Shown here: in pieces, positions 62,951 to 63,020 of the stretch | Layout of the letters: every line of letters begins with the position of its first letter | How positions within the stretch are numbered: position 1 is the stretch's first letter | DNA from: Peptostreptococcaceae bacterium | Lineage (GTDB): Bacteria; Bacillota; Clostridia; Peptostreptococcales; Filifactoraceae | Length of the DNA stretch: 64,000 nucleotides | Direction of reading: 5' to 3' | Assembly (NCBI GenBank): GCA_030528605.1 | Contig: JAUMYO010000004.1 | Coordinates: 2,546 to 66,545, forward strand | Notes under the pieces: generated by a model | The model's input: only the letters and a program-made list of their open reading frames with translations | Told to the model about the DNA's origin: nothing | Databases searched by the model: none | Translations under genes and position numbers: made by a program

Positions 62951-63020
62951 TTTTTGCTCCTTTCATTTGAAAGAAGTACGATCCTATGGTATAATGGATA
63001 TAGAAAGATACTTCTTTCAA
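62927..63020. repeat. direct repeat A, copy 1 (Rha 5' end, SD, palindromic promoter region)
   Basis: About 94 bp, nearly identical to 63617-63710 (3 mismatches in the 80-bp core by eye). Contains the 12-bp inverted repeat TTGAAAGAAGTA / TACTTCTTTCAA. Confidence 0.9.
62967..62995 (+). promoter_or_regulatory. plus-strand promoter of the predicted antisense sRNA (copy 1)
   Basis: TTGAAA, 17 nt, TGgTATAAT (extended -10 consensus). Confidence 0.6.

Follow-up and report, generated by a model that had tools for sequence, protein, structure and literature searches.

A predicted countertranscript-driven RNA switch in the leader of a phage Rha-type gene

Antirepressors decide whether a prophage stays silent, and how the phages of Gram-positive bacteria keep their antirepressors off is largely unknown. 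A contig of a Peptostreptococcaceae bacterium (JAUMYO010000004.1, assembly GCA_030528605.1) raises this question for one gene. Within the 64,000 nucleotides (nt) that we analysed, positions 2,546 to 66,545 of the contig and hereafter the window, a gene for a Rha-type regulator is preceded by a leader that contains an inverted repeat, and a predicted antisense small RNA (sRNA) is encoded on the opposite strand. A first-pass annotation, made from the sequence before any comparison, had proposed that the antisense RNA titrates one arm of this repeat and frees the other arm to sequester the Shine-Dalgarno (SD) sequence of the gene; it had also pointed to a -35 hexamer on both strands, and hence to possible interference between face-to-face promoters. 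Is the leader an RNA switch, and if so, what throws it?

Here, we propose that a three-segment RNA switch driven by a countertranscript hides the SD of the Rha-type gene, a reading to which we assign a probability of about 0.6. Its elements in the window are as follows (MFE, minimum free energy).

62012 to 62950, minus strand: gene for a Rha-type regulator of 312 amino acids (aa), which the switch would control (open reading frame, ORF; Pfam Phage_pRha PF09669, E 6e-23).
62957 to 62964, minus strand: SD GAAAGGAG, segment 4, 6 nt 5' of the ATG (sequence; paired in the MFE fold of the blocked state).
62969 to 62976, minus strand: anti-SD CUUCUUUC, segment 3, at the base of the 3' arm, with either the 5' arm or the SD as its partner (sequence, folding).
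62967 to 62987, minus strand: 3' arm of the leader hairpin; the opposite strand holds the -35 box and spacer of the sRNA promoter (inverted repeat, MFE fold, covariation).
62988 to 62999, no strand assigned: loop of the hairpin, containing the -10 box of the sRNA promoter (promoter scan, MFE fold).
63000 to 63020, minus strand: 5' arm of the leader hairpin (pre-emptor, or anti-anti-SD), the full complement of the sRNA 5' end (inverted repeat, folding).
62967 to 62995, plus strand: sRNA promoter TTGAAA-17-TGgTATAAT (11/12 matches plus the TG).
63002 to 63068, plus strand: predicted antisense sRNA of about 67 nt with a predicted start site (fold -26.6 kcal/mol, z -5.5; inverted repeat); by its fold it consists of a 5' stem-loop (63003-63018), a terminator stem (63025-63062) and a U-run (63063-63068).
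63067 to 63234, minus strand: ribbon-helix-helix (RHH) gene 1, 55 aa, upstream of the Rha-type gene and in the same direction, its stop codon overlapping the 3' end of the sRNA (ORF, family alignment).

In the absence of the sRNA, the 5' arm (63020-63000) would pair with the 3' arm (62987-62967) and occupy the anti-SD CUUCUUUC, leaving the SD GAAAGGAG open and the Rha-type gene translated. The strong convergent promoter, whose -10 box is placed within the loop of the inverted repeat, would give rise to the sRNA of about 67 nt, a perfect complement of both the 5' arm and the hairpin that precedes it. Pairing would probably begin at the terminator-hairpin loops and end with the 5' arm taken away, whereupon the freed anti-SD would fold onto the SD (8 bp, 4-nt loop) and turn translation of the Rha-type gene off. 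We infer that the RHH and Rha-type genes are co-transcribed, that the sRNA is synthesized from near 63002, that its pairing triggers the refolding and that translation is lowered as a result. The leader itself is probably the intercistronic stretch of a minus-strand transcript running from the RHH gene to the Rha/antirepressor gene, and domain-family membership suggests that the Rha-type target is of the antirepressor type.

The pairings on which the first-pass annotation was built are present in the sequence. The 12-nt arm UUGAAAGAAGUA (63020-63009, minus strand) is the perfect complement of UACUUCUUUCAA (62978-62967), and beyond these 12 nt the inverted repeat extends to 21-nt arms, 62967-62987 and 63000-63020, that are 81% complementary. 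The 64-kb window contains five perfect inverted repeats with arms of 12 nt or more and loops no longer than 40 nt, compared with 0.17 in shuffled sequences. The local alternative was likewise described correctly: CUUCUUUC (62976-62969), the loop AAAU (62968-62965) and GAAAGGAG (62964-62957) form an 8-bp helix with one U.G pair, and the SD lies 6 nt before the ATG (62950-62948, minus strand). The predicted sRNA contains UACUUCUUUCAA, as had been claimed, with a near-consensus promoter and a terminated product of about 67 nt predicted for it, and it is intergenic, lying between the stop codon of the RHH gene (63067) and the SD (62964).

Folding predictions for the window leader agree with a switch between two states. 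The MFE structure of the long minus-strand leader is a 13+6-bp hairpin in which the SD is single-stranded (-34 kcal/mol, z -4.5), and when the 5' arm is left out the SD hairpin forms instead. The pairing of the 5' arm with the 3' arm (1:3) and that of the anti-SD with the SD (3:4) are mutually exclusive; as isolated helices they reach -18.4 and -7.1 kcal/mol respectively, and a local hairpin of the 5' arm (1:2) reaches -3.4 kcal/mol. Cofolding of leader and sRNA yields a complete and perfect duplex of 67 bp (ddG -72.9 kcal/mol), with the remainder of the leader forming the 3:4 hairpin. Blocking the sRNA-covered part lowers the probability that the SD core is unpaired from 0.76 to 0.17 (from 0.74 to 0.00 for a slightly different SD window), the drop in accessibility that the first-pass annotation had anticipated. 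Within the subfamily of the window the switch is predicted in 5 of 7 leaders.

What the relatives can say depends on how they were chosen. Earlier sets came from BLAST searches in the family of the host, which gave five related cassettes, and from pattern scans, which gave more. The scans brought out a conserved order of elements: an SD complement, a short spacer, TTGAAAGAAG, a -10 box, a right arm complementary to the left arm, and a terminator whose stem varies and whose loop has a recurring motif. As the search patterns fixed the SD and the anti-SD, conservation of the two in those sets is not evidence, and the tests were therefore repeated on loci selected by protein. RNAalifold on the first MAFFT alignment had returned the 1:2 and 3:4 helices rather than the long hairpin; we set this result aside and do not use it as evidence, because the search pattern had fixed the SD and anti-SD in that set.

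The family set used below was picked solely by the upstream RHH protein. Its relatives, proteins of about 55 aa that start MSPRTGRP..NPK and match Pfam RHH families, are encoded on at least 480 viral contigs, of which the 80 best were kept, each with the 190 nt downstream, and the RHH gene is nearly always the gene in front. The RHH profile matches the RHH structures ParG, ORF56 and SvtR, and CopG weakly (E 0.07). A covariance model built from the window and the main-subfamily leaders matched 64 sites in the 80 loci; its alignment is fitted to the 1:3 hairpin. Of 150 other genomes sampled from the class of the host, 10 contain a match to this leader model.

The long hairpin recurs throughout this set. 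In each of the 45 distinct protein-selected loci a hairpin forms whose loop holds the complement of the -10 box, and the stems are wholly different between loci. In the model alignment 86.3% of the cells of the 1:3 hairpin pair, against 48-58% with slid partners; 15 of 15 pairs are doubly changed, in 95 double-change cells compared with 24 in shuffles. The earlier MAFFT alignment gave much the same result (85.7% of cells paired, against 46-60% slid). Convergent promoters are found in nearly all of the RHH-selected relatives, and in the sRNA downstream of them the terminator stem varies while its loop motif is kept.

The mismatches within the arms tell the two strands apart. Read in the plus sense, pairwise arm mismatches are A.C in 85 cases, equivalent to G.U on the minus-strand RNA, and G.T in 5; in the model alignment G.U outnumbers A.C by 54 to 17. 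The mRNA-sense fold is the more stable one in 33 of 45 loci (-19.1 vs -16.8 kcal/mol for the reverse complement, p 3e-4). Judged by these alignments, the long hairpin is genuine and is a structure of the mRNA strand, the only one that tolerates G.U. The symmetry without strand bias that would mark a DNA palindrome was not found, and the bias therefore argues that the repeat is not a DNA operator. No mRNA-strand promoter of at least 10/12 lies inside the hairpin in any of 46 relatives (the best average 7.9/12), so the 5' arm would be transcribed from upstream, as part of the RHH operon. This removes a contradiction in the first-pass annotation, which had taken the 5' arm both for an RNA segment and for a -35 box.

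The second pairing is also shared by the relatives. The anti-SD CUUCUUUC does not vary among close relatives, and across the family it is co-adapted to the SD. Pairing of the 3' arm is worth -11.05 kcal/mol with its own SD window and -7.7 kcal/mol when the window comes from another locus (permutation p<=1e-4), and this preference holds with one representative per distinct SD window. Compensatory combinations of anti-SD and SD context include ACUCUUUC with GAAAGGGU, GUUCCUUUC with GAAAGGAAC, CCUCUUAU with AUAGGAGG, GGCCUCUUA with UAAGAGGUC, CCUCUGU with ACGGAGG, CUUCUGUC with GAUAGGAG, and CCUCU with AGAGG. In the model alignment, which was not fitted to the 3:4 helix, 86.3% of its cells pair (35-66% with slid partners), and double changes affect four pairs and 8 cells, compared with 2.5 cells in shuffles. 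The mean accessibility of the SD across the family falls from 0.35 to 0.11 with the sRNA-covered part blocked, and stands at 0.43 with a shuffled 3' arm. By these comparisons the anti-SD:SD alternative is a feature of the family, with the 3' arm co-adapted to its own SD context. Comparative and folding evidence thus sustains the core of the first-pass interpretation, titration of the 5' arm and sequestration of the SD; its side-claim, face-to-face promoters, is not supported by the comparison with relatives given below.

The window holds the cassette twice. The second copy has the following features.

63615 to 63709, minus strand: switch copy 2 (SD, anti-SD, hairpin and sRNA promoter), 690 bp away from the first (direct repeat, 96% identical; same fold).
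63692 to 63757, plus strand: predicted sRNA copy 2, identical in its 5' 19 nt, with a different terminator hairpin whose loop is ACUUUGGUCGGUGGG (fold, promoter scan).
63756 to 63917, minus strand: RHH gene 2, 53 aa, of the duplicated cassette (ORF, family alignment).

Switch copy 2 precedes a 14-codon remnant of the Rha gene. Stacks of this kind, with two or three modules in a row, are frequent among relatives (L143, L152, L169 and L176; compare 62925-63709 of the window).

Several points weigh against the switch as proposed. The start site of the sRNA, its expression and the co-transcription of the RHH and Rha-type genes are predictions only, and a simple promoter scan did not find a strong consensus promoter for the RHH gene. 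The SD hairpin of the window reaches just -7.1 kcal/mol. The SD and anti-SD seldom vary, and so the 3:4 helix shows a modest amount of formal covariation. Because the sequences compared are related, the permutation and shuffle statistics are inflated by their lack of independence, although the direction is consistent across methods. Finally, many free leaders of the main family are already closed at equilibrium (mean 0.35, several near 0), with the long hairpin and the two short helices nearly isoenergetic; in the main family the switch may be kinetic and decided during transcription, or may work differently.

Among the other explanations, the one that best withstands these data is plain cis-antisense regulation of the kind exerted by the sar RNA of phage P22, in which the sRNA would act through duplex-dependent cleavage or decay, or through transcriptional interference or collision, and the anti-SD:SD pairing would have no regulatory role. 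In P22, sar overlaps the ribosome-binding site of ant directly; here the end of the predicted sRNA (near 63002) lies about 38 nt upstream of the SD (62957-62964) and leaves the ribosome-binding site uncovered, so that the sRNA would act through refolding, and this shortfall speaks against a sar-like mode of action. The layout does recall P22: its immunity I region (arc, sar RNA and ant), an 'ant moron' often inserted among late genes (PMC2629481), likewise has an RHH gene that immediately precedes an antirepressor-type gene in the same orientation, and a convergent small antisense RNA, and late genes lie near the module in relatives. A near-consensus promoter and a predicted perfect duplex of 67 bp also fit plain antisense action. 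The two systems share no sequence similarity, and the hosts here are Gram-positive. Plain antisense action leaves unexplained why the promoter spacer is kept complementary to the arm that the sRNA targets, with a G.U bias on the mRNA strand, and why the 3' arm tracks its own SD context. We consider this explanation unlikely, but it is the one to be taken most seriously beside the switch.

The sRNA could instead act in trans, its 5' segment CUUCUUUCAA pairing with GAAAGGAG of the Rha mRNA and perhaps with other mRNAs, with the hairpin a by-product. That the window sRNA carries the same anti-SD CUUCUUUCAA as the 3' arm counts for such action and against the switch, and the duplex of the sRNA 5' end with the SD window is predicted at -10.6 kcal/mol. 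Yet in 35 of 48 loci the SD finds a better complement in the cis 3' arm than in the 5' end of the sRNA (-11.2 vs -8.9 kcal/mol), and refolding in cis is therefore favoured over pairing in trans. The sRNAs of the main family carry CUUCU only, the anti-SD of the sRNA is buried within its own 5' stem-loop, and the covarying 1:3 hairpin would go unexplained. We regard regulation in trans as quite improbable.

A further possibility is that the inverted repeat works as DNA, either as the operator of a dimeric repressor over the sRNA promoter or, as the first-pass annotation had suggested, through face-to-face promoters with symmetric -35 boxes. The repeat does flank the -10 box, and copy 1 has TTGAAA on both strands, the minus-strand promoter TTGAAA-18-CATTAT being just a 9/12 match. 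This minus-strand TTGAAA is not kept even in copy 2 and reads CCGAAA, CAGAAA or CUGAAA in relatives, which speaks against symmetric promoters as a feature of the family. The lack of any mRNA-strand promoter at 10/12 and the strand asymmetry of the arm mismatches, which are of the G.U type on one strand only, tell against an action at the DNA level as well, and the arms are wholly different between loci with similar RHH proteins. We give this explanation very little weight.

The position of the SD within a hairpin also raises the question of termination. Genes behind the module have 3.6 T in the 6 nt just after the SD, compared with 1.5 for 404 other genes of the same contigs (p 1e-13), and the SD hairpin of most relatives may therefore double as a terminator. 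That the anti-SD:SD hairpin is mainly an intrinsic terminator in the window too, as in the attenuation of plasmids pT181 and pIP501, is hard to credit: the enriched U-run, the sub-threshold matches to the pT181 countertranscript family described below and the precedent of pT181, whose stem-loop IV holds the ribosome-binding site and yet acts as a terminator (PMC5703833), speak for it, but the window copy and its close relatives lack a U-run after the SD (GGAGCAAAAAAUG), and no terminator is called at the hairpin by a simple scan, not even in the main-family loci L174 and L178. As the window subfamily has no U-run, purely translational control is expected there.

We next compared the proposed switch with known countertranscript systems. 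In pT181, RNAI pairs with the repC leader, where a pre-emptor otherwise holds the 5'-proximal arm of the stem-loop that contains the ribosome-binding site, just before the start codon (PMC5703833). The window resembles this arrangement in having a countertranscript, predicted here, that starts inside the leader and is complementary to the pre-emptor (the sRNA covers 63000-63020), in the competition between the pre-emptor and the stem-loop that holds the ribosome-binding site (the mutually exclusive 1:3 and 3:4 pairings), and in having two hairpins in both RNAs, with a terminator-loop motif, ACUUUGGUC.G.G, that aligns with the Rfam consensus. It differs in that the window hairpin has no U-tract, implying a translation block rather than termination, in that its target is a phage gene of the Rha/antirepressor type and not a plasmid rep gene, and in the RHH repressor gene upstream.

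The Rfam family of this countertranscript, ctRNA_pT181 (RF00242), gives full-length matches for sRNA copy 2 (32.2 bits) and for the relatives L170, L130, L178, L134 and L011 (29-32 bits), and no match for window copy 1. None of these reaches the gathering score of 56 bits, so that the sRNAs fall outside the Rfam family as defined, and neither the module of the window nor those of 12+20 relatives gave any Rfam match at threshold. The sub-threshold matches fall at the position of the sRNA, with the motif ACUUUGGUC.G.G at their centre. The recurrence of sub-threshold matches suggests common descent or convergence.

A motif recurs in the loop of the terminator hairpin (63036-63051 and 63723-63744 in the window): of the 45 loci compared, 18 have (C)UUUGGUCGG on the sRNA strand and 4 a UUUGGCGACC-like motif on the mRNA strand. 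This loop, the portion that aligns with the ctRNA_pT181 consensus, may serve as a U-turn (YUNR) for recognition through kissing.

Plasmid pMV158 offers a parallel in gene order. There the gene for the RHH protein CopG is followed by the target repB, and the intergenic RNAII, about 50-70 nt long, inhibits translation; RNAII is complementary to a stretch just upstream of the translation signals and not to the signals themselves (PMC4485353). The window shares the RHH gene and an intergenic countertranscript that lies upstream of the translation signals. The plasmid system controls replication, and the portions of that account consulted describe no pre-emptor/anti-SD switch (PMC4485353). A kissing step is dispensable in pMV158, which has been linked to the absence of a U-turn motif from the loops of RNAII and its target (PMC4485353); here, in contrast, a UUGG motif recurs in the loops. 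Plasmid pIP501 combines the repressor CopR with an antisense RNA, RNAIII, that induces an alternative fold of the leader, and transcription converging from the sense and antisense promoters belongs to the circuit (PMC5703833). What the proposed switch has in common with it is dual control through a small repressor and an antisense RNA; CopR is a helix-turn-helix and not an RHH protein, the outcome is transcription termination, and the setting is a plasmid replicon. The regulator described here is thus a variant of the known countertranscript-attenuator kind and not a new kind. In the literature that we searched, we found no published description of a phage module composed of an RHH gene, an sRNA and an antirepressor.

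The genes that the module precedes point to a common type of target. In a Pfam scan of the gene directly behind the module in 51 loci, AntA was found 10 times, ORF6C 9, ORF6N 8, Bro-N 6, Rha 5, and ANT and P22_AR_N once each; the remainder are small unknown proteins. Further downstream, relatives have additional antirepressor-type genes or late/structural genes, and the window has genes for an HNH endonuclease and a portal protein. When compared with named phages as DNA, neither the window cassette nor one of the main family gave a match; such phages came up in the RHH protein search alone. RHH gene and antirepressor gene stand about 120 nt apart in the Streptococcus pyogenes phage Javan489, which gives a match of 43 bits to the leader model, and the arrangement is the same in the Clostridioides difficile phages phiCD211 and CDKM15. 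The gap is unannotated in all three phages.

The promoter of the Javan489-type module is absent from the mapped starts in the differential RNA sequencing tables of S. pyogenes S119 (PMC6431027). The same data set includes SP119_SR103 (1445566-1445636), a mapped antisense RNA of 70 nt in the late operon of a prophage (PMC6431027 Table S6). We do not count it as a member of the family, as it follows a gp7-type head gene and has no RHH gene; its -35 box abuts the SD complement of the next gene, in a layout that is loosely similar.

The region upstream of the RHH genes has features of its own. In the window, a strong minus-strand promoter, TTGACT-17-TATAAT (11/12; 63571-63599), drives an ORF of 51 aa (63357-63512, minus strand) that lies upstream of RHH gene 1 and gave no match in a Pfam scan. 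This unit of promoter and 51-aa ORF is repeated upstream of RHH gene 2 (L003:2050-2260), and terminator-like hairpins on both strands lie between it and the RHH gene. An ORF of 327 aa stands upstream of the second cassette (L003:2302-3285, minus strand), 300-1285 bases past the end of the window, after which the contig ends, 1.8 kb past the window. In phages of the C. difficile type, a CRISPR array (Rfam CRISPR-DR14) is found directly upstream of the RHH gene of the module, at L170:347-970 with 10 repeats and at 894-1313 of L191, Clostridium phage CDKM15, with 7 annotated. Other loci have a skipping-rope RNA (RF02924, 56 bits; L162:972-1067, plus strand) or an SpF66 sRNA (RF02442, 52 bits; L145:836-1048, plus strand) just upstream of the RHH gene, both above the gathering score, and one viral contig has a tRNA gene there on the opposite strand (50 bits; L174:1011-1076, minus strand). 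The slot before the cassette seems to collect structured RNAs.

Taken across the family, we tentatively suggest that Gram-positive phages widely carry an unannotated RNA family in which an RHH Cop-like repressor and refolding by a pT181-like countertranscript gate antirepressor-type 'moron' genes. Some sub-lineages would exert dual control through terminator and ribosome-binding site, others would have lost the U-tract and act on translation only, and the shared loop motif would reflect common descent of plasmid and phage elements. If the switch works as proposed, an RNA-based immunity circuit absent from annotation and Rfam would be common to the cassettes marked by the RHH gene, whose relatives occur on at least 480 viral contigs, to the genomes matched by the leader model and to the S. 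pyogenes and C. difficile phages with this gene order. The leader of the Rha-type gene would then provide a natural case in which an antisense RNA triggers refolding and so conceals a ribosome-binding site.

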